Positions 14,725-63,986 of a DNA stretch of 64,000 bases are shown here, piece after piece. This DNA comes from Octopus sinensis (taxonomy: Eukaryota). The position numbers and the translations under genes were made by a program. The stretch is from contig NC_042997.1 of assembly GCF_006345805.1 (NCBI RefSeq), positions 205,654,001-205,718,000 on the forward strand, written 5' to 3'. The notes below the pieces were generated by a model. It was not told where the DNA came from and did no database searches. It saw nothing but the letters and a program-made list of their open reading frames with translations. Each line of letters starts with the position of its first letter. Position 1 is the first letter of the stretch.

Positions 14725-14915
14725 TTCCCTGCTACCACCGTTCTTCCAGGCCTTCCAAGCCTGTTTCTTTTGTCTAATAGCCCTATCAACAATATTGTTC
14801 CACCACCATGTTATTTTGGGTCTTAAGGGGACTTTGCACCAGCCACAGATCTGGTCAGCGGCTTTCAGCAGGTTGTCCCTCAGAAACGTCCAGTTGTCTT
14901 CTACCCCATGTGTAG

Positions 14916-15881
14916 CTATACCCCTTCCACTTCGTCAAAGGCTTCAAGTAACATATCTCTAAATCTCTGTCCATTCGCAGGGTCTTTAAGCTTCCAGACC
15001 CTTCTTCTCCATGTTGGTCGTCTTCTAGTCGACCTCTTAGTCCTGATCCTAAAGTCACTAACTACCAGTCTATGTTGTGGGGTGCATTCTTCGCCCGGGA
15101 AGGTTTTGGCATTTATAAGCAGCCATCTTTCCCTTTTTCTGGCGAGGATGTAGTCGATTTGGCTAGCATGCCGGCCCGATCGGTAGGTGACCAGGTGGCT
15201 TGTTGGTTTCCTGAAGTTAGTGTTGCAGATCATAAGACTATTCGCATCGCAGAACTCCAGCAGCCTGGTTCCCTCCTCGTTGCGGGAACCATAACCGTAG
15301 CCTCCATGCACGCCATGGAAGCCCCCAGCATGTCGTCCAACATGCCCATTGAAATCACCAGCCACAAAGAGAAGGTCCCTGTCGTTCGTCAATGAGGTGG
15401 TCTGCAGTAGGGTGTCATAGAAACTGTCTTTCTGTCCATCGGGTAGCCCTGGCTGAGGGGCATAGGCCGATATAATGGTTGCTAATCTATGATGAAGCAC
15501 TATTCTAATCTTAAGTATTCTGTCACTTACTCTGATTACCTCAATTACTCTATCTATCCATTTCTCAGCGATAAGTATACCCACGCCACCAACCCCGTCA
15601 GTGTTCCCTGCCCAGAAAATCTTGTACCTGTGTTCCTTGCCTGTGAGGAACCTAGCAGATCCTCCTCTCCACCTTATTTCTTGCATACAACATACGTCAA
15701 CACGTCTCCGTTCAAGCATCTCGACTATCTCGCCAGACCTACCTTTCAGTGTGCCAGCGTTGAGGGTGCCCACCCTGAGGGGGTGGAAGGAATTGACCCG
15801 AGAGGCCCAGGGACGGGGAGCAGTGCCGTCATGTACCTGAAAAGAAGAAGAAAACTCGCATTTGGCAGAATTCATAAGCAA
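14916..15881 (-). CDS. RTE apurinic-like endonuclease domain
   Basis: GTLN, MQEIRW, GVGGVGI, SAYAPQ, GDFNGHVG, QIDYIL, QHRLVV. Confidence 0.92.
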   Translation of the reverse strand: MLMNSAKCEFSSSFQVHDGTAPRPWASRVNSFHPLRVGTLNAGTLKGRSGEIVEMLERRRVDVCCMQEIRWRGGSARFLTGKEHRYKIFWAGNTDGVGGVGILIAEKWIDRVIEVIRVSDRILKIRIVLHHRLATIISAYAPQPGLPDGQKDSFYDTLLQTTSLTNDRDLLFVAGDFNGHVGRHAGGFHGVHGGYGYGSRNEEGTRLLEFCDANSLMICNTNFRKPTSHLVTYRSGRHASQIDYILARKRERWLLINAKTFPGEECTPQHRLVVSDFRIRTKRSTRRRPTWRRRVWKLKDPANGQRFRDMLLEAFDEVEGV

Positions 15882-16659
15882 AGCAATGAACTTAAGTTCA
15901 ACCTGTTACACTGCACTAACATGTTTTTGCGCCGTATGGTCACCACCATATATAGAAGGGGTGGTATTGGTTTAAGGCCTTTAGGTGTTCATGGAAGAAA
16001 AGCAAAGGAAGGCAAGGTGAGATAAGGACTTCCGGTACTGGTGGTGGGGGCGGGAGGGCGGGCGCACTGCGCACTGGGAGAAGACGAGATTTAGGCGGCA
16101 GTAAGAAAGGCAAGATTTGAGATGGAAAGGTTTGCGGTCGTGTGCATAATTTTCTATGAGTGTAAGTTGGGAAAGATGGGTTAGAGAATTAAGCGACAGA
16201 GAGACCAGATTTGAGACGAGATGTTTTTTTGCGGTCGTGTGAATAAGTTTTTGTGAGCGAAAGTTTATATGCTTCAGCTAGCATTTGAGACGAAGGATAA
16301 CGTTAATATATGGGGGACACAATAATAAGGCTTGATGGTGATAATAATACTTGCAAAAACAATGAAAGAGGGACAGGTCGTGAACTTAAATATGACTTAG
16401 CTGATATTATTCATCGTCCTGCGGTTCGAAGTTCGTGTGTTATAGCCAGGAGGAAAGCAGTAATAAGGGCGGTCAAGCCTCGTGCGTAGGGTTTTATAGG
16501 GGAGGGGGATCGGAGGTGTGGGTAGAAGCCTGTGGCAGCGAGTGAAAGTGAAATATATATATATATATAGAGAGAGAGAGACAGTGATGTGCGTAGGGTT
16601 TTATAGGGGAGGGGGATCGGAGGTGTGGGTAGAAGCCTGTGGCAGCGAGTGAAAGTGAA

Positions 16660-18189: not shown

Positions 18190-20135
18190 CATCAATTAAC
18201 GTCCGTTTTCCATGCTGGCATGGGTTAGACGGTTTGACTAAGGTCTAGAGAGCCAGCGGTTGCACCAGGCTCCATTTGGTCTGGCAGAGTTTCTATGGCT
18301 GGATGCCCTTCCTAATGCCAACCACTCTGAGAGTGTAGTGGGTGCTTTTTACATGCCACCAGCACTGGAACCAGTAAGGTGGGCTTGGCAACGATCACAT
18401 TCGGATGATACTTTTTATGTGCCACCGGCAGAGGAACAAGTCAAGGGGTACTGGCATCAGTCACGATCGGTTGTTTTTTTTTATGTGGCACTGGCACAGT
18501 ATCCAGTCAGGCAAACCACGTTTGAATGGTATCTTTGATGTGCCATCAGCATGGGAGCTAGCCAGAGGGCACCAGCCCCAGCTACGATGTTGGTTTTACT
18601 TGACTCAACAGGTCTTCTCAAGCAACACACTAGGGGCATTCTTAACAGAGCTGGACGTGCATGGCTGCCATCTCACTTTAGTTGCTGGGCCTTCTCAAAC
18701 ACAGTACATCTCCAAAGGTCTCCTGTCATTACCTCCGTGAGGCCCAATTTTCGAAGGTCATACTTCACCACCTCATCCCATGTCTTCTTGAGTCTACTTC
18801 TTCCACAGGTTCCTTCAACAGTTAGGGAGTGGTACTTCCTCACACAGCTGTCTTCATTCATACGTAACACATGGCCATACCAGCGCAGTGATCTCTCTTG
18901 CACACCACATTTGATGCTTTTTATGCACTTACACTCTGTCTTCTGTGCACACTGATATTACACATCCAGCGGATCATACTAGCTTCATTTCTTTCAAGTC
19001 TATGCATGTCCTCAGCTGTCACACCCCATGTTTCACGGCTGTGTAGCATGGCAGTTCACACGCATGCATCATACAGTCTACCTTTCACCCTGAGTAAGAG
19101 GCCTTTAGTTGCCAGGAGAGGTAGAAGCTCCCTGAGCTTTGACCAGGCTATTCTTATTCTAGCCGGTACACTCTCAGAGCAACCACTCCCGCTACAGATT
19201 TGGTTGCCTAGGTAGCGGAAGCTATTAACTACTTCTAGCTTCTTGCCCTGGCATGTGATGGAATATGTTTTTTGAACATCTTCAGTGTTTATTACCCCAG
19301 TGCATCTGCCACACACAAAAACTGTTTTCCTGGTTAACCTTCCTTTGATATTGCTGCACCTTTTATATGTCCAAAGCTTACACTGGGTACATCGCATGGT
19401 GTTTCTACCCACACCTTTTCCTCAGAACGAGCAGGGCCATCTACCTGAAGGGGTTTGCGATCTGTCAGCCTCCCTACCTGCTAAGGCTTTGGTTTTTGCT
19501 ACATTAACCCTAAGGCCCTTCGATTCTAGACCTTGCTTCCATACTCTAAACTTTGTCTCCAGTTCTGGTAGTGACTTGGCAATTAGAGCAAGGTCATCAG
19601 CATAAAGCAGCTCCCAAGGGCAGCCTGCCTTGAATTCCTGTTATTGTTTGGAGGACTATGAGAGGGGGCTGAAGATTGGTCCTTGGTGAACCCCTACTTC
19701 TACCTGGGATTCTTTACTATACTCATTGCCGACCCTCACCTTACTGACAGCATCCTTGTATATGGTTTGTGCAGCTCTCACTAACCACTTATCTATTCCT
19801 AGTTTCCACATTGACCAACAGTTAAGGGATAAGGGGACACTGTCAAAGGCTTTCTCCATGTCATTGAAAGCCAGGTACAAAGGTTTAACTTTGGCTAGGT
19901 ATTTCTTCTGCAGTTGCCTTACCAGAAATATAGCATCAGTGGTGCTTCTGCCTAGTACAAAACCAAACTGAATCTCATCTAGGCTAACTCTCTCCCTACT
20001 TAGTTGGGCTATGACCCTCTATGGTGCTGCTACACCAGCCATTGTGTATGACTCCTTCATTAACTACCTGATTTACAATGCGGGTGACAAGGCCATAATC
20101 CACACTGCCCGATATTTTAAGCATCTCAGCGGTGA
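18190..20135 (-). mobile_element. Degenerate 5'-truncated RTE LINE
   Basis: ORF fragments 19656-19880, 19056-19412 and 18673-18903 are homologous to 12751-14724; 3' tail at 18190-18540. Confidence 0.92.
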
Positions 20136-20160
20136 TTTATATATATATATATATATATAA

Positions 20161-21719: not shown

Positions 21720-24128
21720 GAAAATACAATCATAACCTTCCACAAAAGTAGTAAAGTAATACAGCTATAGTAAAGAAGCTTAAAATTAACGAAATGAGAG
21801 TCTGGAAAATTGTCAAGAAATTTTAAGAGACTGGTTCCACCACTGACTGACCTAGACGCAAGCGAACAAGAATTCTGAAGACCTCTCAGCTTATCAAAAA
21901 AGTACCATGGAAAATATATGGTGAAGTCCTAGTTGATCCATTAGAAAACTAGCTGCCACAGTGAAAATAAATTGGAAATCAGTGTATCAGGTGCAGTAGG
22001 AGGATCTTAGGACCCAACCCTATAAGATGATCCACCATCATGATCTTACGTAAGTTTATAAGGTGATGTGACTGGAAAGAAGCCATCTTATCTTGCATCA
22101 GATTGCTAAAGACAAGCTTCCCAGCCTGGTGTTCCCTGTTGGAAAGAAACTTGACACCGAACAAACGGTAAACCATCAGAACAACCGACATTTTGAGTGT
22201 ATCTGGTTCTGTCAAGGATAGACTTATAAATCGATGTCAAAATCAACAATCAGTTATGGTTTGGGTGGCTGTGAAAGCCACAGGAAGGTCTCCCTTCATT
22301 TTTGTGCCCTCAGATGTTAAAATTAACATTAAAAATAACATTAGTGACATTCTAGAAGTTTAACTGCTTCCCTGGATGAATGAGCACTTTCATGGCATAC
22401 GAGGGGCGTTCAATAAGTAATGCCCCTGACCCACTTCCCATAGCAGTAGAGCAACAAAACTTGGCATAGTTATTAGTCTTTTTCTACATAGGAGCCAACC
22501 AGAGTTACGCATTTCTCCAATTGTTTGATGCAGCTCTGGAGACCGTTTTTGTAGAAGACCCAGCTTGGTCCTCCAACCACAATGTGACTTCAGAAATCAA
22601 GGTTGCATCATCTGGGAAACGCTTTCCTTTCAAAAACAACTTCATGGCTGGGAAAAGATGAAAATCAGAGGGTGCAAGGTCAGGAGAGTAGGGGGGATGA
22701 GGGAGGAGTTCATAGCTGCACGCCTGTGCTTCTGATCTGGCAACACGCGAGTTGTGGACCGGAGCATTGTCCTGCAGGAGGAGGATGCCTTTGCTGATCT
22801 TGCCCCGCCTCTTGATTTTGATAGCTTCTCTTAATTTCCACAAAAGTGAAGCATAATAGGCTCCTGTAATTGTGGTACCATTTGCCAGGAAATCTGTCAT
22901 CACTATTCCGTCCTGGTCCCAGAAGACTGTGAGCATGACCTTGGCAGCAGAGGGCTGCACCCTTGCCTTCTTTGGAGGAGGTGAGTCACGGTGCTTCCAC
23001 TGCATTGACTGGGCTTTGGTCTCTGGATCATAGTGATGGACCCAGGTTTCATCCTGTGTAATCAGTCTTTTGAAAAATTTTGACTCATCTTCTTGGCACA
23101 TCTCCAAATTCATCCTTGAGCACTCGACGCGTTCTTGCTTCTGGAAAGGTGTGAGCAACCTGGGAATCCATCTGGTAGACACCTTTTGCATATGCAAATG
23201 GTCATGAATGATAGTTTCCACAGACCCGGTACTAATCTTGACCTCATGGGCTATTTGGCGAATAGTTATGCGTCGATCTTCCAAAATGGCAGCCTCAACT
23301 TGACGGACAGATGCCTCATGAATGGCAGAAGTGAGGCGACCAGATCTGGGAGCTGTTTCCACAGAGTTCCGACCATGTTTGAATTCACGATGCCAGCGGT
23401 TTACAAGGTCATATGATGGGGCATCATCACCATAAGTTACTTTCATTTCATCAAAAGTCTCCTGTGGTGTGCGTCCTTTCAAATACAAAACCGGATCACT
23501 GCTCGACACTCAACAGGCTCCACTTCATACTTGACTCAGTTCAAGCACCTATAAATCAGAAACCATAATTAGTTCAGAGCTGTAATTTGCCACTTAATCT
23601 ATAGAGATATAAATAATTGCACATGCAAAATTTCAGCTAGATCAAACATCTGCAAGTGGGTCAGGGGCATTACTTATTGAACGTCCCTCATACGTTAGAG
23701 CTTACAACTGGACTTGGCACCATCCAACAGCTCCAAATAGACACAACAGTGGATTCAGAAAGACATTCCGTCGTTGTTAGTCAAGGACATATGGTCCTCA
23801 AGAAGCCCCAATCTCAATCCATTGGGTTTTTCTGTTTGGCCCATTTTGGTCTTGAGCACTCCCCAAGTTTGCTCAATGCTCTGGAGACAATACTGTGCCA
23901 GGAATGGGCTTTGGTTCCACAAGAACAATTGTGAACTGCATGTGTAGCATTTGCACCTAGAGTTGCATCTGTGTCTTGAAAAAGAGGTGGTCATATTGAT
24001 TAAATGTGGTAGAGTCATAATTGTGTTTCATTTACCATTGCATTGTAATGCTCTGAACCGAAATATAACAATATTTGGCTTTGGCAAAATTGGAAAAAGG
24101 TAGTTGCTTCAAATTTGGGACACAGTGT
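21720..24128 (+). mobile_element. Highly degenerate DD37D-like transposon split by a mariner insertion
   Basis: VMVWVAV...SPFIFVPSDVKIN before 22400 continues as QLDLAPS...WSSRSPNLNPLGFSVW after 23690; boundaries approximate. Confidence 0.65.
22400..23690 (-). mobile_element. Mariner (DD34D) transposon, ~1.29 kb
   Basis: TIRs cgaggggcgttcaataagtaatgcccctgacccactt / aagtgggtcaggggcattacttattgaacgtccctca with TA TSD; ORF 22505-23509 has WIPRLL, QDETW, QDNAPVH, HPPYSPDLAPSDF; both ORF ends look frameshifted. Confidence 0.95.
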
Positions 24129-26222: not shown

Positions 26223-26450
26223 CTTTACTACTTCTGTATCTTGAGGATAAACCACAAAGCAAACGTCTTTGATCCGGCTTGAATTTAGATTTGAGTAGCT
26301 TTTCACTGCTTCATACATAGTTCTGGGTAGTTCTTCAACAGGGTACTTCAATACCCCAGCTCCTAATATAGGAAATGCAAGACTTTTTGCTCCCAATTCC
26401 TCAGCATTTTCCAGACAAGTGGTTATTATTTGAGTCAAGTTTGCCAGAAT
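26223..26450 (-). CDS. Macrodomain module 1, exon C (PARP14/15-like macro C-terminal half)
   Basis: ttattag| acceptor, |gttggt donor, 228 nt, phase 0-0; ILANLTQIITTCLENAEELGAKSLAFPILGAGVLKYP...IKDVCFVVYP. Confidence 0.9.
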
Positions 26451-27061: not shown

Positions 27062-27289
27062 TTTATTAGAGGAATATTCATCCCAGGGAGGTAATGCCAG
27101 ATGAAATACATTCTTACAGTTGAGGTTATATCCTTTAGTGATGGCTATTTTAAATGTAGAAATACCTTGAGGATATTTCTGGTTACATTCATATTGTATC
27201 TGTGAACCAGCAGCATTGAGAATAGATTTGGAGATAGCACCACAGTTAAGCTGGAGTTCTTTATTGGTGCTGTTAACGATGACATCAAC
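27062..27289 (-). CDS. Macrodomain module 1, exon B
   Basis: ttttgtag| acceptor, |gtaagt donor, 228 nt; VDVIVNSTNKELQLNCGAISKSILNAAGSQIQYEC...ITKGYNLNCKNVFH (not in the ORF track). Confidence 0.92.
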
Positions 27290-27570: not shown

Positions 27571-27707
27571 AGATGCATTAGAAATTGAATCAGTCGATAG
27601 TTGTATTTTGATGCCAGCATTTTCTCTGGATGTCTCATTAGTTCTGGGCTCCACAGAAGAGGTTTCCTTTTGCGAAACATGAAGAGATGTGTTTGATGAT
27701 GTGGTGT
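27571..27707 (-). CDS. Macrodomain module 1, exon A (Ser/Thr linker + first strand)
   Basis: ttttcag| acceptor, |gtgagt donor, 137 nt, phase 1-0; DTTSS...GIKIQLSTDSISNAS joins VDVIVN in frame. Confidence 0.85.
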
Positions 27708-30620: not shown

Positions 30621-32363
30621 TGTACATACGTATAGGCATGCCATCATCAGCATTATCCCCATCTACATTTCATGTCCATGCTGGCATAAGTTGAACAAAA
30701 TGATATATAAAGACACATTTGTCACAGCAAAAGTCATGTCCAAAAACTGTGATATATATTCCTGTCCATGCTGGGCCTTACGCCCACATTTGCCCCTGTG
30801 AAGCATCCCCTTCACCACATCTCATCTTCCTAACACCCACCCCTCTATTATACTCTTCTAACTATGGTCCTACTTTACTGCTGTAACCATTTGAGAGCAT
30901 TCATCACCACCCAAACCCTTTCATTAATACCAGTTGCATCTCTTTCATCATCATCTCCATCCATACAACCTTCCATCGATCATCCCTTTCTGTCCCTTCC
31001 CTAATCTTTCCCACCCATCCCTCTTAGCTACACCTTACTCTGCCAGGTTTCCTGTTGAACACTTCTCCTATCTGCAATCATTCTCAACACCCTCTCACAG
31101 CCATTGCTAATAATCCCTCCAATTTTCTGGCCCCACTCACTATAGCCACCCCCATGTATCTCTGACTCCCATCTCTTTCACAGTTCATCATCTCTGCTTT
31201 CCCTCTGCTGTCAGATCCTGGTCTTCATCTCTCTTCCTCCTCATCTATCAACAGATTGATGATTCTGCTGCTCTCCACCCTTCCTCTGAGGCTTTTTGTC
31301 ACCTCCTCCTTTCCGAGCCCCGTCAGTCTATCAACTCCACCTCAAACCATTGTTCCTCACTCTCTACAACCACCTCAAGCCCCATCTCTAACCTCTGCAC
31401 TTTTCATCTCACACTCTGATGCCATTACCCTCCCATTCCTTCTTTACTCATCCACAGTCTCCCTTATACTCCCCTTCTTGTAACTTGGGACTATGCTCTG
31501 GCACTCTATTACCACCATCTTTCTTCCTTCCAGATACTGTCATGCACCTTTGCATAAATATAAGGACGCCACGAGTCTCCTCTAGATCTATGTGCTTAAG
31601 CCTCTGGCAAACTTTAGACTTTCTAGCCCTGGCCTCAAGCCACCTCCCCACTCCCCAGTTCCATCAGGGGGCTTGCAAGATACTTGGTAACCTCACCAGT
31701 GCTGGTGCCATGAGAAAAGCAGGTTCCAGTCCACACTCTAAAATGGTTGGCATTATGTTGAGTATTCTAACTCTGAATATTCTTCGACCAAAGTAGATGG
31801 GGATGACAATGTGTTTGTCCCTTGCTAGGATGGCCGTCCAGTTATTTTTGGTCTCCTCCTCTGAGACAGACTGCACTTTGACAGTCCCATATTTCTTTCT
31901 TTAACCTGGCTACGTAGGCTTTGCTTTTCTAAACTGCTTCTAGGTATTTCTCTATTTGCTGCTGTGTTGCCTGCTCCACTTCCCTTCTTTTGACTTCAGT
32001 TGTTTTATATAGGACTGTCCACAAATTAATTTTTTGCGGGGCCAGTTCTATGAATGTTTAATACCATTTTTCTGCTACATTTTGCACTCTTGAATTCATT
32101 TCCATCAATAAAAAATGTCTTCACTTAATTCTGTGGTTACTCTTGCAAAGTTGAAATTGTTACGACTAGATTTGCATGTCTCATTCTTCCTCATTTTCTC
32201 TCTCTCTCTCTCCTCTTGTTTTTCCTCTGCCTAGGTAACCAAATACCTCCTTCACACCAGCACACCAATTTATGGCCTTTTTTGCGTACCTCTTTCTCTG
32301 TCCCTCGGTAACCATGTCTCTCCTCTATAGCAAGACATCTCTCTCTGCTTCTTTATTTCTCCG

Positions 32364-32826
32364 TCACACTCTAACACTTCATCATCTACTACTGGATCAC
32401 CTCCTCCAATGCCCTCTCTGCTATGGCAAGACCCCTCTTTCTGTCTCTCTGTCACACTCTAACACTTCATCATCTACTACTGGATCACCTCCTCCAATGC
32501 CCTCTCTGCTATGGCAAGACCCCTCTTTCTGTCTCTCTGTCACACTCTAACATTTCATCATCTACTACTGGATCACCTCCTCCAATGCCCTCTCTGTTAT
32601 GGCAAGACCCCTCTTTCTGTCTCTCTGTCACACTCTAACATTTCATCATCTACTACTGGATCACCACCTCCAATGCCCTCTCTGTTATGGCAAGACCCCT
32701 CTTTCTGTCTCTCTGTCACACTCTAACATTTCATCATCTACTACTGGATCACCACCTCCAATGCCCTCTCTGTTATGGCAAGACCCCTCTTTCTGTCTCT
32801 CTGTCACACTCTAACCTTTCATCATC
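32364..32826. repeat. 88-bp minisatellite, ~5 copies (unit 1)
   Basis: tcacactctaacatttcatcatctactactggatcacctcctccaatgccctctctgttatggcaagacccctctttctgtctctctg repeated. Confidence 0.95.
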
Positions 32827-33289
32827 TGACACAAGCTCTCCTCTTGCCCCTCTCATAATTCATTATCTTGGTGACCCTGCCAGCACTGGTGCCATGTAAA
32901 AAGCATCCACTGCACACTGTGAAATGGCTTGCATTTGGAAGGGCATCTAGCTGCAAAAATAATGCCAAAACTAACTTTGTTGTGCTAGTTCCACGTAAAA
33001 TGTACTGAGTCCACTCTGCTGAGTGGTTGGTGTTAGGAAGTGCATCCAGCTGTAAAATTCCTGCCAAACAGACAGAGTAGCGAAGGGTAGTTATTTTCCA
33101 CCTTGCCGGCTCCTGTCAACTGTCCAATCCATGCATGCTTAGAAAACAGATGTTAAACGATGATGATGATGATGATGTTGGCAGTGGTACTGGCAAACCT
33201 GCTGCAGCTGCACCTGATAACACAGGAACTTGAGGTAAACATGAATTCTGATCACGAACAGCCGACGAGAGAGAAGAAACCCTACTCCG

Positions 33290-34580: not shown

Positions 34581-35101
34581 ATGATAATAATGATATTAAC
34601 ATTAATCATATTTATAATAAACAGTGTTTAATAGAGACGGTGTGACAAAACACCATAATATTCAATATCAACAAACAAATTGTTTACCTTTTGAATGAAA
34701 TCTTTCCTTTTCCTGTTTATTCATCATTCCTTCATTTTCGCCTTTATTTTGGAGATATTCTTCAAATTTCTGCAAAATTTAAAACCATGAGAATCATTTT
34801 TGTTTAATTTTTTGCTTTTTTTAAAGAGAAGAGATTTAATTTAACAAAAGACAAACAAAATATTTAAAATATTTAATGATTTATTTCTAATCAGTAATAA
34901 GGAAATAAGGAAAATTACTTTGTCACTCAGATCAAAGATATTCCATCCACGACCTTCCAGTCTACTGGGAGACATGGTGTTATAGTGGATGTGGCAGAAA
35001 AACCTTCCACTGTGACCACTGATGTGGTGTTAGTGAAGTTAAACATGTGGCAATGGTGTCTTCATGTAGCTGAAGTTGTATTGTTTCTTCTCTCCACTCA
35101 C

Positions 35102-37241: not shown

Positions 37242-37469
37242 CTTTGCTATTTCTCTGTCTTCTTCAGGTAAAACCACAAAGTAAACATCTTTGATCTGGC
37301 TTGAATTTTGATCTGAGTAGTTTTTCACTGCTTCATACATTGTTCTGGGTAGTTTTCCAATGGGGTATTTCATTTCAGCCCCTAATATAGGAAATGCCAG
37401 GCTTTTTGCTCCCATTCTCTCAGCATTTTCCAGACAAATGGTTATTATTTGAGTCAAGTTTGCCAGAAT
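37242..37469 (-). CDS. Macrodomain module 2, exon C
   Basis: AG/GT bounded, 228 nt; ...SLAFPILGAEMKYP...IKDVYFVVLP. Confidence 0.88.
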
Positions 37470-38079: not shown

Positions 38080-38307
38080 TGAATCAGAAGAATATACATT
38101 CCAGTAAGGTAATACCAGATGAAATACATTCTTACAGTTGAGGTTATATCCTTTAGTAATGGCTATTGTAGATGTAGAAATACCTCGAGGATATTCCTCG
38201 TCACATTCATTTTGTATCTGTGGACCAGCAGCATTGAGAATAGATTTGGAGATAGCACCAATGTTAAGGTAGAGGTTTTTATTGGTTCTGTTAACGATGA
38301 CATCAAC
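38080..38307 (-). CDS. Macrodomain module 2, exon B
   Basis: AG/GT bounded, 228 nt, open; VDVIVNRTNKNLYLNIGAISKSILNAAGPQIQNEC... Confidence 0.9.
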
Positions 38308-38588: not shown

Positions 38589-38725
38589 AGATGCATCAGA
38601 AATTGAATCAGTCGATAGTTGTATTTTGATGCCATCATTTTCTCTGGATGTCTCATTAGTTCTGGGTGCCACAGAAGAGATTTCCTTTTGCGAAACATGA
38701 AGAGATGTGTTTGATGATGTGGTGT
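38589..38725 (-). CDS. Macrodomain module 2, exon A
   Basis: AG/GT bounded, 137 nt; ...ENDGIKIQLSTDSISDAS. Confidence 0.85.
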
Positions 38726-45901: not shown

Positions 45902-48033
45902 TTATATATACACTTTAGATGAGTTGTAGTGCACCTGAGCACTGTACACAATTATTATTATTATTATTATTATATCAAGCCAAATGAAATCATAGCTGTG
46001 GTCTTTGTAGGTGTCACCTACATGCCAGCCATGCCAGTCTCACGTAAAAAGTACCATTTGGGGGTTGTGCCTCATAGAGGCCATGTGGTTGATGCTGGCA
46101 TCATGTATCTAGCATCCATGCTGGTGGTAAATAAAAGCAGCCATTACATTGGTGGTTAGGAAAGGTATCCAGCTGTAGAAACCATACCATGTCAGACTGG
46201 AGTCTGGTGTAGCCCCTCACCTTGCCAGCCCCAGTCAAACCGTCCAACCCATGCCAGCATGGACAATGGATGCTAAATGATGATGATCATGATGTACATA
46301 CGTATAGGCATGCCATCATCAGCATTATCCCCATCTACATTTCATGTCCATGCTGGCACAAGTTGAACAAAATGATATATAAAGACACATTTGTCACAGC
46401 AAAAGTCATGTCCAAAAACTGTGATATATATTCCTGCCCATGCTGGGCCTTACGCCCACATTTGCCCCTGTGAAGCATCCCCTTCACCACATCTCATCTT
46501 CCTAACACCCATCCCTCTATTATACTCTTCTAACTATGGTCCTACTTTACTGCTGTAACCATTTGAGAGCATTCATCACCACCCAAACCCTTTCATTAAT
46601 ACCAGTTGCATCTCTTTCATCATCATCTCCATCCATACAACCTTCCATCGATCATCCCTTTCTGTCCCTTCCCTAATCTTTCCCACCCACCCCTCTTAGC
46701 TACACCTTACTCTGCCAGGTTTCCTGTTGAACACTTCTCCTATCTGCAATCATTCTCAACACCCTCTCACAGCCATTGCTAATAATCCCTCCAATTTTCT
46801 GGCCCCACTCACTATAGCCACCCCCATGTATCTCTGACTCCCATCTCTTTCACACTTCATCATCTTTGCTTTCCCTCTGCTGTCAGATCCTGGTCTTCAT
46901 CTCTCTTCCTCCTCATCTATCAACAGATTGATGATTCTGCTGCTCTCCACCCTTCCTCTGAGGCTTCTTGTCACCTCCTCCTTTCCGAGCCCCGTCAGTC
47001 TCTCGACTCCACCTCAAACCATTGTTCCTCACTCTCTACAACCACCTCAAGCCCCATCTCTAACCTCTGCACTTTTCATCTCACACTCTGATGCCATTAC
47101 CCTCCCATTCCTTCTTTACTCATCCACAGTCTCCCTTATACTCCCCTTCTTGTAACTTGGGACTATGCTCTGGCACTCTATTACCACCATCTTTCTTCCT
47201 TCCAGATACTGTCATGCACCTTTGCATAAATATAAGGACGCCACGAGTCTCTCTAGATCTATGTGCTTAAGCCTCTGGCAAACTTTAGACTTTCTAGCCC
47301 TGGCCTCAAGCCACCTCCCCACTCCCCAGTTCCATCAGGGGCTTGCAAGATACTTGGTAACCTCACCAGTGCTGGTGCCATGAGAAAAGCAGGTTCCAGT
47401 CCACACTCTAAAATGGTTGGCATTATGTTGAGTATTCTAACTCTGAATATTCTTCGACCAAAGTAGATGGGGATGACAATGTGTTTGTCCCTTGCTAGGA
47501 TGGCCGTCCAGTTATTTTTGGTCTCCTCCTCTGAGACAGACCGCACTTTGACAGTCCCATATTTCTTTCTTTAACCTGGCTACGTAGGCTTTGCTTTTCT
47601 AAACTGCTTCTAGGTATTTCTCTATTTGCTGCTGTGTTGCCTGCTCCACTTCCCTACTTTTGACTTCAGTTGTTTTATATAGAACTGTCCACAAATTAAT
47701 TTTTTGCGGGGCCAGTTCTATGAATGTTTAATACCATTTTTCTGCTACATTTTGCACTCTTGAATTCATTTCCATCGATAAAAAATGTCTTCACTTAATT
47801 CTGTGGTTACTCTTGCAAAGTTGAAATTGTTACGACTAGATTTGCATGTCTCATTCTTCCTCATTTTCTCTCTCTCTCTCTCCTCTTGTTTTTCCTCTGC
47901 CTAGGTAACCAAATACCTCCTTCACACCAGCACACCAATTTATGGCCTCTTTTGCGTACCTCTTTCTCTGTCCCTCGGTAACCATGTCTCTCCTCTATAG
48001 CAAGACATTTCTCTCTGCTTATTTATTTCTCCG

Positions 48034-51000
48034 TCACAAACTAACATTTCATCATCTACTACTGGATCACCTCCTCCAATGCCCTCTCTGCTATGGCAAG
48101 ACCCCTCTTTCTGTCTCTCTGTCACACTCTAACATTTCATCATCTACTACTGGATCACCACCTCCAATGCCCTCTCTGTTATGGCAAGACCCCTCTTTCT
48201 GTCTCTCTGTCACACTCTAACATTTCATCATCTACTACTGGATCACCTCCTCCAATGCCCTCTCTGTTATGGCAAGACCCCTCTTTCTGTCTCTCTGTCA
48301 CACTCTAACATTTCATCATCTACTACTGGATCACCACCTCCAATGCCCTCTCTGTTATGGCAAGACCCCTCTTTCTGTCTCTCTGTCACACTCTAACATT
48401 TCATCATCTACTACTGGATCACCTCCTCCAATGCCCTCTCTGTTATGGCAAGACCCCTCTTTCTGTCTCTCTGTCACACTCTAACATTTCATCATCTACT
48501 ACTGGATCACCTCCTCCAATGCCCTCTCTGTTATGGCAAGACCCCTCTTTCTGTCTCTCTGTCACACTCTAACATTTCATCATCTACTACTGGATCACCT
48601 CCTCCAATGCCCTCTCTGTTATGGCAAGACCCCTCTTTCTGTCTCTCTGTCACACTCTAACATTTCATCATCTACTACTGGATCACCTCCTCCAATGCCC
48701 TCTCTGTTATGGCAAGACCCCTCTTTCTGTCTCTCTGTCACACTCTAACATTTCATCATCTACTACTGGATCACCTCCTCCAATGCCCTCTCTGTTATGG
48801 CAAGACCCCTCTTTCTGTCTCTCTGTCACATCTAACATTTCATCATCTACTACTGGATCACCACCTCCAATGTCCTCTCTGTTATGGCAAGACCCCTCTT
48901 TCTGTCTCTCTGTCACACTCTAACATTTCATCATCTACTACTGGATCACCTCCTCCAATGCCCTCTCTGTTATGGCAAGACCCCTCTTTCTGTCTCTCTG
49001 TCACACTCTAACCTTTCATCATCTACTACTGGATCACCTCCTCCAATGCCCTCTCTGTTATGGCAAGACCCCTCTTTCTGTCTCTCTGTCACACTCTAAC
49101 CTTTCATCAACTACTACTGGATCACCACCTCCAATGCCCTCTCTGTTATGGCAAGACCCCTCTTTCTGTCTCTCTGTCACACTCTAACATTTCATCATCT
49201 ACTACTGGATCACCTCCTCCAATGCCCTCTCTGTTATGGCAAGACCCCTCTTTCTGTCTCTCTGTCACACTCTAACCTTTCATCATCTACTACTGGATCA
49301 CCACCTCCAATGCCCTCTCTGTTATGGCAAGACCCCTCTTTCTGTCTCTCTGTCACACTCTAACATTTCATCATCTACTACTGGATCACCACCTCCAATG
49401 CCCTCTCTGTTATGGCAAGACCCCTCTTTCTGTCTCTCTGTCACACTCTAACATTTCATCATCTACTACTGGATCACCTCCTCCAATGCCCTCTCTGTTA
49501 TGGCAAGACCCCTCTTTCTGTCTCTCTGTCACACTCTAACCTTTCATCATCTACAACTGGATCACCACCTCAAATGCCCTCTCTGTTATGGCAAGACCCC
49601 TCTTTCTGTCTCTCTGTCACACTCTAACATTTCATCATCTACTACTGGATCACCTCCTCCAATGCCCTCTCTGTTATGGCAAGACCCCTCTTTCTGTCTC
49701 TCTGTCACACTCTAACATTTCATCATCTACTACTGGATCACCACCTCCAATGCCCTCTCTGTTATGGCAAGACCCCTCTTTCTGTCTCTCTGTCACACTC
49801 TAACATTTCATCATCTACTACTAGATCACCACCTCCAATGCCCTCTCTGTTATGGCAAGACCCCTCTTTCTGTCTCTCTGTCACACTCTAACATTTCATC
49901 ATCTACTACTGGATCACCTCCTCCAATGCCCTCTCTGTTATGGCAAGACCCCTCTTTCTGTCTCTGTCACACTCTAACATTTCATCATCTACTACTGGAT
50001 CACCTCCTCCAATGCCCTCTCTGTTATGGCAAGACTCCTCTTTCTGTCTCTCTTTCACACTCTAACATTTCATCATCTACTACTGGATCACCTCCTCCAA
50101 TGCCCTCTCTGTTATGGCAAGACCCCTCTTTCTGCCGCTCTGTCACACTCTAACATTTCATCATTTACTACTGGATCACCTCCTCCAATGCCCTCTCTGT
50201 TATGGCAAGACCCCTCTTTCTGTCTCTCTGTCACACTCTAACATTTCATCATCTACTACTAGATCACCTCCTCCAATGCCCTCTCTGTTATGGCAAGACC
50301 CCTCTTTCTGTCTCTCTGTCACACTCTAACATTTCATCATCTACTACTAGATCACAACCTCCAATGCCCTCTCTGTTATGGCAAGACCCCTCTTTCTGTC
50401 TCTCTGTCACACTCTAACATTTCATCATCTACTACTGGATCACCTCCTCCAATGCCCTCTCTGTTATGGCAAGACCCCTCTTTCTGTCTCTCTGTCACAC
50501 TCTAACCTTTCATCATCTACTACTGGATCACCTCCTCCAATGCCCTCTCTGTTATGGCAAGACCCCTCTTTCTGTCTCTCTGTCACACTCTAACCTTTCA
50601 TCAACTACTACTGGATCACCACCTCCAATGCCCTCTCTGTTATGGCAAGACCCCTCTTTCTGTCTCTTTGTCACACCCTAACATTTCATCATCTACTATT
50701 GGATCACCTCCTCCAATGCCCTCTCTGCTATGGCAAGACCCCTCTTTCTGTCTCTCTGTCACACTCTAACCTTTCATCATCTACTACTGGATCACCACCT
50801 CCAATGCCCTCTCTGTTATGGCAAGACCCCTCTTTCTGTCTCTCTGTCACACTCTAACATTTCATCATCTACTACTGGATCACCACATCCAATGCCCTCT
50901 CTCTTATGGCAAGACCCCTCTTTCTGTCTCTCTGTCACACTCTAACATTTCATCATCTACTACTGGATCACCTCCTCCAATGCCCTCTCTGTTATGGCAA

Positions 51001-54000
51001 GACCCCTCTTTCTGTCTCTCTGTCACACTCTAACCTTTCATCATCTACAACTGGATCACCACCTCCAATGCCCTCTCTGTTATGGCAAGACCCCTCTTTC
51101 TGTCTCTCTGTCACACTCTAACATTTCATCATCTACTACTGGATCACCTCCTCAAATGCCCTCTCTGTTATGGCAAGACCCCTCTTTCTGTCTCTCTGTC
51201 ACACACTAACATTTCATCATCTACTACTGGATCACCACCTCCAATGCCCTCTCTGTTATGGCAAGACCCCTCTTTCTGTCTCTCTGTCACACTCTAACAT
51301 TTCATCATCTACTACTGGATCACCTCCTCCAATGCCCTCTCTGTTATGGCAAGACCCCTCTTTCTGTCTCTCTGTCACACTCTAACATTTCATCATCTAC
51401 TACTAGATCACCACCTCCAATGCCCTCTCTGTTATGGCAAGACCCCTCTTTCTGTCTCTCTGTCACACTCTAACATTTCATCATCTACTACTGGATCACC
51501 TCCTCCAATGCCCTCTCTGTTATGGCAAGACCCCTCTTTCTGTCTCTCTGTCACACTCTAACCTTTCATCATCTACTACTGGATCACCTCCTCCAATGCC
51601 CTCTCTGTTATGGCAAGACCCCTCTTTCTGTCTCTCTGTCACACTCTAACCTTTCATCAACTACTACTGGATCACCACCTCCAATGCCCTCTCTGTTATG
51701 GCAAGACCCCTCTTTCTGTCTCTCTGTCACACTCTAACATTTCATCATCTACTATTGGATCACCTCCTCCAATGCCCTCTCTGCTATGGCAAGACCCTCT
51801 TTCTGTCTCTCTGTCACACTCTAACCTTTCATCATCGACTACTGGATCACCACCTCCAATGCCCTCTCTGTTATGGCAAGACCCCTCTTTCTGTCTCTCT
51901 GTCACACTCTAACATTTCATCATCTACTACTGGATCACCACCTCCAATGCCCTCTCTGTTATGGCAAGACCCCTCTTTCTGTCTCTCTGTCACACTCTAA
52001 CATTTCATCATCTACTACTGGATCACCTCATCCAATGCCCTCTCTGTTATGGCAAGACCCCTCTTTCTGTCTCTCTGTCACACTCTAACATTTCATCATC
52101 TACTACTGGATCACCACCTCCAATGCCCTCTCTGTTATGGCAAGACCCCTCTTTCTGTCTCTCTGTCACACTCTAACATTTCATCATCTACTGCTGGATC
52201 ACCTCCTCCAATGCCCTCTCTGTTATGGCAAGACCCCTCTTTCTGTCTCTCTGTCACACACTAACATTTCATCGTCTACTACTGGATCACCTCCTCCAAT
52301 GCCCTCTCTGCTATGGCAAGACCCCTCTTTCTGTCTCTCTGTCACACTCTAACATTTCATCGTCTACTACTGGATCACCACCTCCAATGCCCTCTCTGTT
52401 ATGGCAAGACCCCTCTTTCTGTCTCTCTGTCACACTCTAACATTTCATCATCTACTACTGGATCACATCCTCCAATGCCCTCTCTGTTATGGCAAGACCA
52501 CTCTTTCTGTCTCTCTGTCACACTCTTACCTTTCATCATCTACTACTGGATCACCACCTCCAATGCCCTCTCTGTTATGGCAAGACCCCTCTTTCTGTCT
52601 CTCTGTCACACTCTAACATTTCATCATCTACTACTGGATCACCTCCTCCAATGCCCTCTCTGTTATGGCAAGACCCCTCTTTCTGTCTCTCTGTCACACT
52701 CTAACATTTCATCATCTACTACTGGATCACCACCTCCAATGCCCTCTCTGTTATGGCAAGACCCCTCTTTCTGTCTCTCTGTCACACTCTAACATTTCAT
52801 CATCTACTACTGGATCACCTCCTCCAATGCCCTCTCTGTTATGGCAAGACCCCTCTTTCTGTCTCTCTGTCACACACTAACATTTCATCATCTACTACTG
52901 GATCACCTCCTCCAATGCCCTCTCTGTTATGGCAAGACCCCTCTTTCTGTCTCTCTGTCACACTCTAACCTTTCATCATCTACAACTGGATCACCACCTC
53001 CAATGCCCTCTCTGTTATGGCAAGACCCCTCTTTCTGTCTCTCTGTCACACTCTAACATTTCATCATCTACTACTGGATCACCTCCTCCAATGCCCTCTC
53101 TGTTATGGCAAGACCCCTCTTTCTGTCTCTCTGTCACACTCTAACATTTCATCATCTACTACTGGATCACCACCTCCAATGCCCTCTCTGTTATGGCAAG
53201 ACCCCTCTTTCTGTCTCTCTGTCACACTCTCACATTTCATCATCTACTACTGGATCACCTCCTCCAATGCCCTCTCTGTTATGGCAAGACCCCTCTTTCT
53301 GTCTCTCTGTCACACACTAACATTTCATCATCTACTACTAGATCACCACCTCCAATGCCCTCTCTGTTATGGCAAGACCCCTCTTTCTGTCTCTCTGTCA
53401 CACTCTCACATTTCATCATCTACTACTGGATCACCTCCTCCAATGCCCTCTCTCTTATGGCAAGACCCCTCTTTCTGTCTCTCTGTCACACTCTAACATT
53501 TCATCATCTACTACTAGATCACCACCTCCAATGCCCTCTCTGTTATGGCAAGACCCCTCTTTCTGTCTCTCTGTCACACTCTAACATTTCATCATCTACT
53601 ACTGGATCACCTCCTCCAATGCCCTCTCTGTTATGGCAAGACCCCTCTTTCTGTCTCTCTGTCACACTCTAACATTTCATCATCTACTACTGGATCACCT
53701 CCTCCAATGCCCTCTCTGTTATGGCAAGACCCCTCTTTCTGTCTCTCTGTCACACTCTAACATTTCATCATCTACTACTGGATCACCACCTCCAATGCCC
53801 TCTCTGTTATGGCAAGACCCCTCTTTCTGTCTCTCTGTCACACTCTAACATTTCATCATCTACTACTGGATCACCTCCTCCAATGCCCTCTCTGTTATGG
53901 CAAGACCCCTCTTTCTGTCTCTCTGTCACACACTAACATTTCATCATCTACTACTGGATCACCTCCTCCAATGCCCTCTCTGTTATGGCAAGACCCTCTT

Positions 54001-55886
54001 TCTGTCTCTCTGTCACACTCTAACCTTTCATCATCTACAACTGGATCACCACCTCCAATGCCCTCTCTGTTATGGCAAGACCCCTCTTTCTGTCTCTCTG
54101 TCACACTCTAACATTTCATCATCTACTACTGGATCACCTCCTCCAATGCCCTCTCTGTTATGGCAAGACCCCTCTTTCTGTCTCTCTGTCACACTCTAAC
54201 ATTTCATCATCTACTACTGGATCACCACCTCCAATGCCCTCTCTGTTATGGCAAGACCCCTCTTTCTGTCTCTCTGTCACACTCTCACATTTCATCATCT
54301 ACTACTGGATCACCTCCTCCAATGCCCTCTCTGTTATGGCAAGACCCCTCTTTCTGTCTCTCTGTCACACACTAACATTTCATCATCTACTACTAGATCA
54401 CCACCTCCAATGCCCTCTCTGTTATGGCAAGACCCCTCTTTCTGTCTCTCTGTCACACTCTCACATGTCATCATCTACTACTGGATCACCTCCTCCAATG
54501 CCCTCTCTCTTATGGCAAGACCCCTCTTTCTGTCTCTCTGTCACACTCTAACATTTCATCATCTACTACTAGATCACCACCTCCAATGCCCTCTCTGTTA
54601 TGGCAAGACCCCTCTTTCTGTCTCTCTGTCACACTCTAACATTTCATCATCTACTACTGGATCACCTCCTCCAATGCCCTCTCTGTTATGGCAAGACCCC
54701 TCTTTCTGTCTCTCTGTCACACTCTAACATTTCATCATCTACTACTGGATCACCTCCTCCAATGCCCTCTCTGTTATGGCAAGACCCCTCTTTCTGTCTC
54801 TCTGTCACACTCTAACCTTTCATCATCTACTACTGGATCACCTCCTCCAATGCCCTCTCTGTTATGGCAAGACCCCTCTTTCTGTCTCTCTGTCACACTC
54901 TAACCTTTCATCAACTACTACTGGATCACCACCTCCAATGCCCTCTCTGTTATGGCAAGACCCCTCTTTCTGTCTCTCTGTCACACTCTAACATTTCATC
55001 ATCTATTATTGGATCACCTCCTCCAATGCCCTCTCTGCTATGGCAAGACCCCTCTTTCTGTCTCTCTGCCACACTCTAACCTTTCATCATCTACTACTGG
55101 ATCACCACCTCCAATGCCCTCTCTGTTATGGCAAGACCCCTCTTTCTGTCTCTCTGTCACACTCTAACATTTCATCATCTACTACTGGATCACCTCCTCC
55201 AATGCCCTCTCTGTTATGGCAAGACCCCTCTTTCTGTCTCTCTGTCACACTCTAACCTTTCATCATCTACAACTGGATCACCACCTCCAATGCCCTCTCT
55301 GTTATGGCAAGACCCCTCTTTCTGTCTCTCTGTCACACTCTAACATTTCATCATCTACTACTGGATCACCTCATCCAATGCCCTCTCTGTTATGGCAAGA
55401 CCCCTCTTTCTGTCTCTCTGTCACACTCTAACATTTCATCATCTACTACTGGATCACCACCTCCAATGCCCTCTCTGTTATGGCAAGACCCCTCTTTCTG
55501 TCTCTCTGTCACACTCTAACATTTCATCATCTACTACTGGATCACCTACTCCAATGCCCTCTCTGTTATGGCAAGACCCCTCTTTCTGTCTCTCTGTCAC
55601 ACTCTAACATTTCATCATCTACTACTGGATCACCACCTCCAATGCCCTCTCTGTTATGGCAAGACCCCTCTTTCTGTCTCTCTGTCACACTCTAACATTT
55701 CATCATCTTCTACTGGATCACCTCCTCCAATGCCCTCTCTGCTATGGCAAGACCCCTCTTTCTGTCTCTCTGTCACACTCTAACCTTTCATCATCTACTA
55801 CTGGATCACCTCCTCCAATGCCCTCTCTGTTATGGCAAGACCCCTCTTTCTGTCTCTCTGTCACACTCTAACCTTTCATCATCTGA
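48034..55886. repeat. 88-bp satellite array, ~89 copies (unit 2)
   Basis: Same monomer as 32364-32826; ORF-track periodicity is 88 nt. Confidence 0.98.
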
Positions 55887-59570: not shown

Positions 59571-60065
59571 ATGATAATAATGATAATAACATTAATCATA
59601 TTTATAATAATCAGTGTTTAATAGAGACGGTATGACAAAACACCATAATATTCAATATCAACAAACAAATTGTTTACCTTTTGAATGAACTCCTTCATTT
59701 TCGGCTTTATTTTGGAGATATTCCTCAAATTTCTGTAAAATTCAAAACCATGAGAATCATTTTTGTTTAATTTTTTTGCTTTTTTTAAAGAGAAGAGATT
59801 TAATTTAACAAAAGACAAACAAAATATTTAAAATATTTATTGATTTCTTTCTAATCAGTAATAAGGAAATGAGGAAAATTACTTTGTCACTCAGATCAAA
59901 GATATTCCATCCACGACCTTCCAGTCTACTGGGAGACATGGTATTGCAGTGGATGCGGCACAAAGACCTTCCACACTGACCACTGATGTGGTGTTAGTGA
60001 AGTTAAACATGTGGCAATGGTGTCTTCATGTAGCTGAAGTTGTATTGTTTCTTCTCTCCACTCAC

Positions 60066-62518: not shown

Positions 62519-62746
62519 CTTTGCTATTTCTCTGTCTTCTTCAGGTAAAACCACAAAGTAAACATCTTTGATCTGGCTTGAATTTTGATCTGAGTAGTTT
62601 TTCACTGCTTCATACATTGTTCTGGGTAGTTTTCCAATGGGGTATTTCATTTCAGCCCCTAATATAGGAAATGCCAGGCTTTTTGCTCCCATTCTCTCAG
62701 CAGTTTCCAGACAAGTGGTTATTACTTGAGTCAAGTTTGCCAGAAT
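62519..62746 (-). CDS. Macrodomain module 3, exon C
   Basis: AG/GT bounded, 228 nt; nearly identical to module 2 exon C. Confidence 0.88.
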
Positions 62747-63344: not shown

Positions 63345-63572
63345 TGAATCAGAGGAATATTCATTCCAGTAAGGTAATGCCAGATGAAATACATTCTTAC
63401 AGTTGAGCTTATATGCTTTAGTGATGGCAATTTCAGATGTAGAAATACTTCGACGAAATTTCTGGTTACATTCATCTTGTATCTGTGGACCAGCAGCATT
63501 GAGAATAGATTTGGAGATAGCACCAATGTTAAGCCGGAGGCTTCTATTGGTGCTGTTAACGATGACATCAAC
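63345..63572 (-). CDS. Macrodomain module 3, exon B
   Basis: AG/GT bounded, 228 nt, open; VDVIVNSTNRSLRLNIGAISKSILNAAGPQIQDEC... Confidence 0.9.
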
Positions 63573-63849: not shown

Positions 63850-63986
63850 AGATGCATTAGAAATTGAATCAGTCGATAGTTGTATTTTGATGCCAGCATT
63901 TTCTCTGGATGTCTCATTAGTTCTGGGTGCCACAGAAGAGATTTCCTTTTGCGAAACATGAAGAGATGTTTTTGATGATGTGGTGT
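63850..63986 (-). CDS. Macrodomain module 3, exon A
   Basis: AG/GT bounded, 137 nt. Confidence 0.85.

Follow-up and report, generated by a model that had tools for sequence, protein, structure and literature searches.

A shortened diphosphate loop in the repeated second macrodomain of a PARP14-like gene from Octopus sinensis

The described system closest to the modules analysed here is the second macrodomain (MD2) of human PARP14 (PDB 3Q71, 3VFQ, 5O2D; also PARP9 MD2). Like them, it sits after a canonical MD1 and before the PARP domain, has a non-GDI first motif (EGV in the place of the octopus DSI), lacks hydrolase motifs and belongs to a class with a diphosphate loop of the form PxxGxGxLxxP. 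It has been solved with ADP-ribose (3Q71), and its KD for an ADP-ribosyl peptide, 6.8 μM, was the best of the three PARP14 macrodomains (MD1 137 μM, MD3 15 μM; PMC6008491). The diphosphate loop clamps the pyrophosphate (PMC5413906), and in PARP14 MD2 a shift of the loop adjacent to Pro1130 blocks ADP-ribose binding (PMC6008491). In human PARP14 a single MD2 precedes MD3 and a WWE domain, whereas the octopus gene has up to five MD2, no MD3 and, by a Pfam search of its protein, no WWE domain. Two of the octopus modules differ further in a loop that is one residue short and in the loss of the aromatic residue or His at the adenine cap.

A second comparison is MacroD2, an MD1-type hydrolase. A preprint (bioRxiv 10.1101/2021.05.08.443251) places the engineered low-affinity mutant G188E, citing primary work, in a class with <20% of wild-type affinity, and reports that D78A retains 40-60% of affinity, that F224A binds like wild type and that I189R binds equally or better. 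Folded macrodomains that stand beside a binding-competent relative are also described, as only macroH2A1.1 binds ADP-ribose while macroH2A1.2 and macroH2A2, together with GDAP2, are natural non-binding macrodomains (PMC8580838). The octopus copies differ from the macroH2A proteins, which are histone variants, in lying in tandem in a transferase. The macroH2A1.2 form arises from an alternative exon.

At the level of the family, PARP14-like genes are described as duplicating often and in clusters (PMC4245714, PMC13224862), and the macrodomains of macroPARPs as positively selected, with MD2 and MD3 non-catalytic and MD1 activity repeatedly lost (PMC10221186, PMC10470015, PMC10499325). The recurrent macrodomain inactivation reported for mammalian PARP14 and viruses (PMC10221186) is a parallel in that the function of a macroPARP macrodomain was lost under positive selection; it differs in that MD1 hydrolase activity was lost there, whereas a loss of binding in an amplified MD2 is predicted here. 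The accession list of that paper has one O. sinensis protein, and its available text does not mention a shortening of the diphosphate loop. A PARP14-like protein has been recorded in the mucus of O. vulgaris (PMC11431876). Our search of the octopus and cephalopod literature on PARP14 and macrodomains, which covered few subscription journals, returned nothing on a short loop or on the expansion.

The window, a stretch of 64,000 nucleotides of O. sinensis DNA, holds exons of a PARP14-like gene, all on the minus strand. RefSeq models of the O. sinensis PARP14/15 isoforms X1, X3, X4, X5 and X7 match these exons at 100%. The modules are tandem copies of MD2 with four exons each, referred to as DSI (137 nt), VDV (228 nt), loop (228 nt) and linker (82 or 55 nt). 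All module exons are open with canonical splice sites, and the three loop exons, 228 nt each, are in phase 0-0 with AG/GT ends. The positions in the window are:

26223..26450, minus strand: module 1 loop exon, with the intact loop FPILGAGVLKYP at 26375-26340, its Gly codon at 26357-26355 and Tyr at 26249-26247; last macrodomain before PARP
27062..27289, minus strand: module 1 VDV exon, 228 nt
27571..27707, minus strand: module 1 DSI exon, 137 nt, with DSI at 27591
34688..34769, minus strand: linker exon after module 2, 82 nt, end of the last helix
37242..37469, minus strand: module 2 loop exon, 228 nt, phase 0-0, with Tyr-to-Leu at the F224 equivalent (37271-37269) followed by one added codon (PEED)
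37362..37394, minus strand: module 2 diphosphate loop FPILGAEMKYP, one residue short, with the Glu codon at 37376-37374, inside the segment 37355-37400 flagged in the preliminary description
38080..38307, minus strand: module 2 VDV exon, 228 nt, loop 1 and helices, positively selected, with VNR for VNS (Arg codon 38289-38287)
38589..38725, minus strand: module 2 DSI exon, 137 nt, linker and first strand, with DSI at 38609
59678..59732, minus strand: linker exon after module 3, 55 nt
62519..62746, minus strand: module 3 loop exon, 228 nt, with the short loop at 62671-62639 and Leu at 62548-62546; differs from the module 2 exon at 3 nt
63345..63572, minus strand: module 3 VDV exon, 228 nt, positively selected
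63850..63986, minus strand: module 3 DSI exon, 137 nt, with DSI at 63870

The gene order is M3-M2-M1-PARP, opposite to the numbering of the modules, so that module 1 is the last, PARP-proximal macrodomain. In the protein a partial canonical MD1, which carries STGIFG, is followed by two MD2 encoded outside the window, by modules 3, 2 and 1 and by the PARP domain; a search of the downstream part of the window (1-26222) found no PARP exons. The protein P0002, with 100% identity to the window exons, has six Macro stretches and a PARP domain, the make-up of a macroPARP; modules 1, 2 and 3 correspond to about residues 976-1150, 751-925 and 535-710. The PARP domain contains HGT, GVYF and IYVTF motifs, which we take to be the H-Y-I mono-ART triad, and has putative mono-ADP-ribosyltransferase activity. 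The layout is MD1-(MD2)n-PARP and not the ancestral MD1-MD2-MD3 order; judged by its sequence, the gene is a PARP14-like derivative rather than the three-domain archetype.

The repeat unit is ~11 kb long, and insertions together with an 88-bp satellite bring the distance between modules 2 and 3 to ~25 kb. The satellite lies in introns at 48028-55884 and 32358-32827, with 89 copies in one repeat unit and 5 in the other that are 97-98% identical. A degenerate extra DSI exon of ~120 nt, whose acceptor looks intact and which has an in-frame stop at the would-be Asp codon, runs downward on the minus strand from 29940 and again from 40960. Elsewhere in the window, long open frames with endonuclease and reverse-transcriptase-like motifs at 12754-15905 (minus strand) are presumably an RTE-like LINE, with a decayed copy at ~18683-20137, and a 334-aa open frame at 22508-23509 (minus strand) resembles, in our judgement, a mariner-type transposase. 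An assembly artefact is unlikely, as the introns of the copies are 0.8-3.1% apart and carry separate insertions and the same loop occurs in O. vulgaris. The 100% matches of the RefSeq models and the short loop in the O. vulgaris proteins P0007 and P0008 exclude chance or an error in a single assembly.

To class the macrodomains we built profiles from seeds taken according to position in 90 proteins with three domains. Seed agreement was 72, 87 and 81 of 90, and domains with a margin of <10 bits, 23 in number, were left out. The census set consisted of the best 150 of 7,622 matches in a 50%-identity library; two mammal-like matches were set aside and 487 distinct domains were cut out. With these profiles modules 3, 2 and 1 scored best as MD2, by 29, 32 and 57 bits. 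The closest solved structure to a single intact octopus module was human PARP14 MD2 (3Q71, E 6e-28), and an intact module of the paralog P0009 matched the fold of that domain with Z 29.4 and an rmsd of 1.6 Å over 189 residues. PARP14 MD2 is the proper comparison for these modules, in place of the hydrolase MacroD2 to which they had been referred in the preliminary description. Neither N(6x)GG[VLI] nor G[VIA][YF]G, the motifs of MacroD-type ADP-ribosyl hydrolases (PMC10470015), is found in modules 1-3, which do not have the signature of that class. The loop-1 Gly and the conserved Asn that mark a reader are invariant in 49/49 octopus MD2, modules 2 and 3 included. A full-length diphosphate loop with the G188-equivalent Gly is present in module 1 and absent in modules 2 and 3. 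The octopus set contained 9 MD1, 68 MD2 and no MD3 (0/77 domains). Amplification of MD2 is by itself ordinary, since at least two MD2-type domains, nearly all with the Gly, occur in 47/138 non-octopus proteins in the best 150 of 7,622 matches, a set biased to multi-domain matches.

Six-frame translation bore out that the loop of modules 2 and 3, FPILGAEMKYP (from 37394 and 62671), is one codon shorter than FPILGAGVLKYP of module 1 (from 26375). The flagged segment was also correctly identified as the diphosphate loop, and its Gly is kept in 185/189 non-octopus MD2-type domains in the best 150 of 7,622 matches. The loop has 11 residues in 187 of these 189 domains and 12 in the other two, and none has 10. 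Among the same best 150 of 7,622 matches, 10-residue loops occur in 13/97 MD3 and 2/100 MD1, where the motif is less well aligned at its far end. The lost codon is not placeable from the DNA, as removal of either GGG or GGT from module 1 leaves 5 mismatches. The exon nevertheless stays at 228 nt, modules 2 and 3 having gained one codon near its 3′ end (VVYPQDTEVVK versus VVLPEEDREIAK). The preliminary description read this gain as a balance for the deletion, a reading that does not hold, as 5/12 short-loop exons are without it. Compensation of exon length was rejected on these counts, the extra codon being present in 7/12 short-loop exons and 0/38 intact ones; from the distribution among exons, it is a later change on the short-loop lineage and not a required balance.

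The collected loop exons numbered 53 distinct sequences, 50 in the Octopus set and 3 from outgroups. The short loop was found in 12 of the 50, in two species and several genes, the O. vulgaris carriers being P0007 and P0008. Argonauta hians P0105 has GAGVLKYP, indicating that the intact loop is ancestral, and the apparent species pairs P0003_131/P0007_159 and P0010_733/P0008_848 indicate that the deletion is older than the split of O. sinensis and O. vulgaris. Synonymous distances in the loop exon, 0.13-0.16 between module 1 and modules 2 or 3 and 0 between modules 2 and 3, agree with a deletion that predates the split. A first tree scattered the short-loop exons and needed 5 changes, but a single short-loop clade was not rejected in an AU test (p 0.49) that masked the loop columns and omitted two long-branch rows. 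Gene conversion carrying the short loop onto several backgrounds was dropped on the strength of this test. Rescue of the Gly by A-to-I editing of GAA was likewise set aside: the longest fold-back match in the window is 14 nt, both A's are locally unpaired (pairing 0.01-0.03, a weak test) and the loop would stay short anyway. The first MD2 of the gene (P0002 residues 278-289, outside the window) reads GPEMKYP, with Ala changed to Pro in the slot predicted to replace the Gly.

We examined the modules in AlphaFold models. For P0005 (76-row alignment), 10-residue blocks of module 2 have pLDDT values of 79-98, with 93 in the loop, and the order of strands and helices is that of module 1, giving the alpha/beta/alpha fold of a macrodomain; the model of the paralog P0009 repeats this. 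The helical turn of the loop is formed by G-V-L in module 1 and by A-E-M in module 2, where the preceding coil is one residue shorter, and the P0009 model agrees. Ala is thus predicted to occupy the G188 slot and Glu the adjacent I189 slot. The column of the I189 slot varies widely among octopus sequences (Lys 15, Val 11 and Thr 7 among 49), and O. vulgaris P0008 has Lys at the loop slot where modules 2 and 3 have Glu. The models are ligand-free, and from them we only infer binding.

The parallel with MacroD2 G188E drawn in the preliminary description stands in part. The loop is the same, the Gly is gone, and a plain left-anchored alignment sets Glu at the place of the Gly. In the register of the models, however, Ala takes the Gly slot and Glu the I189 slot, where O. 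vulgaris has Lys, and the octopus change combines a deletion with substitutions. The statement that G188E abolishes binding was also too strong, given the <20% class in which the available preprint text places the mutant. A literature search for a paper pairing a PARP14 macrodomain with G188E returned none. On the models, the change is best described as one residue deleted, the Gly slot changed to Ala and an acidic neighbour, and not as a natural G188E.

Other positions of the pocket bear on binding. The replacement of GDI by DSI had been taken as a further sign of loss; DSI is present in modules 1, 2 and 3, hence also in the module with the intact loop. Asp at this first motif is found in only 34/185 non-octopus MD2, versus 87/95 MD1 and 81/95 MD3 (best 150 of 7,622 matches). 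With Asp this rare in MD2, EGV in a PARP14 MD2 that binds and affinity kept in D78A, we rejected DSI as evidence of lost binding. At the adenine-stacking position, Tyr is changed to Leu in module 2 (37271-37269) and module 3 (62548-62546), and the extra codon adjoins. The aromatic at this F224 equivalent is missing in 12/12 short-loop exons (10 Leu, 2 Cys), while an aromatic or His is kept in 32/37 scorable intact Octopus exons and 173/188 other MD2 (best 150 of 7,622 matches). The short loop and the aromatic loss are probably one inherited haplotype and therefore not independent evidence. As F224A and I189R still bind in MacroD2, neither the aromatic loss nor a change at residue 189 would be sufficient alone. 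The pyrophosphate is contacted through backbone amides, which a shortened loop might still supply, and this counts against lost binding. The role of the loop, the conservation of its Gly and the affinity of G188E together make weakened binding a fair expectation. With a shortened clamp, Ala in the Gly slot and an acidic neighbour, ADP-ribose binding is probably strongly weakened.

The VDV exon, which encodes loop 1, is under positive selection in the short-loop copies too, and this is probably the firmest new result. Pairs of modules show 11-14% nonsynonymous and 2-6% synonymous differences in this exon, compared with 2.6-3.2% in the two adjacent introns together and 0.8-3.1% in five other intron stretches. 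In pairwise counts on three exons, made before any recombination screen, nonsynonymous differences amounted to 23/169, 23/170 and 18/168 versus 23, 28 and 26 of 874 in adjacent intron (Fisher p 5e-8, 6e-7 and 5e-5), a rate ~4-5 times that of the introns in all three modules; synonymous sites did not differ from introns (p 0.67, 1 and 0.12). In comparisons with module 1 the dN/dS ratio within the exon was 3.8-7.9 (M1-M2 and M1-M3, p 0.003-0.04); the M2-M3 ratio, 1.7-2.1, is not significant (p 0.20-0.35). Assigned to lineages, modules 1, 2 and 3 have 13, 9 and 9 nonsynonymous changes versus 2.3, 1.9 and 2.9 expected (p 3e-5, 0.0013 and 0.009), and they carry 3, 5 and 6 private residues absent from all 50 exons of other genes. 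Module 2 has VNR for VNS beside the conserved Asn, a change seen in 0/50 exons of other octopus genes and 0/190 non-octopus MD2 (best 150 of 7,622 matches). Of the 24 variable sites in the exon, four lie in loop 1 past the Asn-Ser pair (positions 10, 11, 13 and 16) and one is that Ser. The same comparison found no nonsynonymous excess in the DSI or the loop exon. Positive selection in the short-loop modules means that they are not simply decaying. Of the three, module 1 is the most strongly selected, so that selection is not confined to the copies with a short loop.

With the loop exon of module 2 as query, a search gave 40 proteins out of 81 candidates, including 27 from O. sinensis, 10 from O. 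vulgaris and 1 from O. bimaculoides. The octopus PARP14-like family is large (P0001-P0040, P0147, P0184), with MD1, one to five MD2 and no MD3, and many of its O. sinensis members lie on one 213-Mb sequence. The short loop is present in 11/42 protein models, and 11/11 of these also have an intact module, a co-occurrence that is only suggestive as the 11 include five isoforms of one gene and many are partial. Models with a single complete loop never have the short form (0/20), and the last module is intact in 8/9 short-loop models with a PARP domain. The isoform models X3, X5 and X7 (P0001, P0004, P0006) join exons of different modules into hybrid domains. In X7 the loop-1 exon of module 2 is spliced to the intact loop exon of module 1, in a model of the kind that near-identical exons and short reads can create.

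Our preferred reading, to which we assign a probability of about 0.45, is that modules 2 and 3 have become pseudo-readers, which keep the macrodomain fold but bind ADP-ribose less well, and that their surface is being adapted to other partners. By sequence, both modules descend from a variant loop exon that predates the split of the two Octopus species and in which a residue of the diphosphate clamp and the adenine-stacking aromatic have been lost; according to the models they still fold as macrodomains. The shortened clamp probably weakens ADP-ribose binding strongly. By homology, the reading of ADP-ribose may be left to the intact module 1, erasing to the upstream MD1 and writing to the PARP domain. 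Once freed from the ligand, the extra copies would have had the surface formed by loop 1 and the helices reshaped by positive selection. In the weakest step, this surface might serve to recognise something else, with pathogen or host proteins that steer the transferase as the likeliest candidates. The invariance of the loop-1 Gly and Asn in the short-loop copies counts against this explanation.

The same invariance (49/49 octopus MD2) favours a somewhat less probable account, in which modules 2 and 3 continue to read ADP-ribose through a remodelled pocket, the choice of sites is tuned by selection on loop 1 and the tandem array adds avidity. This account would fit the intact fold of the AlphaFold models, the equally strong selection on the intact module 1, the placing of 4/24 variable VDV sites in loop 1 past the Asn-Ser pair with one more at the Ser, and the binding kept by MacroD2 F224A and I189R. 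It could also draw on the 47/138 non-octopus proteins in which MD2 is repeated, nearly always with the Gly (best 150 of 7,622 matches), although a 10-residue loop occurs in 0/189 non-octopus MD2 in that set. An acidic side chain now lies beside the pyrophosphate site, module 2 has a private Ser-to-Arg change adjoining the conserved Asn, and 0/20 single-module models have the short loop alone; we consider continued reading unlikely on these grounds, though well worth keeping in view.

The preliminary description had suggested that the amplified copies could be decoys or protein-binding sensors, a proposal to which the positive selection lends indirect support. A role as decoys or acceptor pads appears improbable. 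The modules would serve as bait for pathogen antagonists of macroPARPs, which would suit the rapid change of their surface as part of an arms race, yet no such antagonist emerged from the analysis. As acidic surfaces they might instead accept the enzyme's own ADP-ribosylation, human PARP14 being reported to modify its own MD2 and MD3 through a linkage that may be to glutamate (PMC10499325). The short-loop exons here gain Glu (GAEM, PEEDRE), but O. vulgaris P0008 has a loop Lys instead and the extra codon is missing in 5/12 short-loop exons.

The isoform models raise another prospect, which we regard as doubtful, that the gene is a splice-diversified pathogen sensor. Equal-length exons of the same phase would pair fast-evolving loop-1 exons with ADP-ribose-blind or ADP-ribose-reading loop exons, giving a hybrid repertoire that might bind foreign proteins and aim the transferase. 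Birth-and-death decay, with redundant copies losing the pocket by drift and persisting as mere spacers, would accord with the very recent duplication (introns 0.8-3.1% apart), the many partial and frameshift-like models in the family and the dead extra DSI-like exon within the repeat unit, but it has little to recommend it against nonsynonymous change in the VDV exon at ~4-5 times the intron rate, which is not a product of drift, exons that are all open with canonical splice sites and a short loop retained in two species and several genes.

Duplication of PARP14, amplification of MD2 and positive selection on macroPARP macrodomains are already known. What appears to be new, relative to the octopus and cephalopod literature searched, is an MD2 that occurs naturally in amplified form, has a shortened diphosphate loop and is still under adaptive change. 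The short loop is a detail likely to surprise a macrodomain specialist, yet the family is known for duplication and fast change. Modules 1, 2 and 3 offer a natural series of close sequences for testing the contribution of the loop Gly and binding by the selected surface, and the octopus modules bear on what the reader domains of macroPARPs recognise. If the copies are ADP-ribose-blind yet functional, they would be a case of a reader fold put to new use in invertebrate immunity, as a variable module for recognition.
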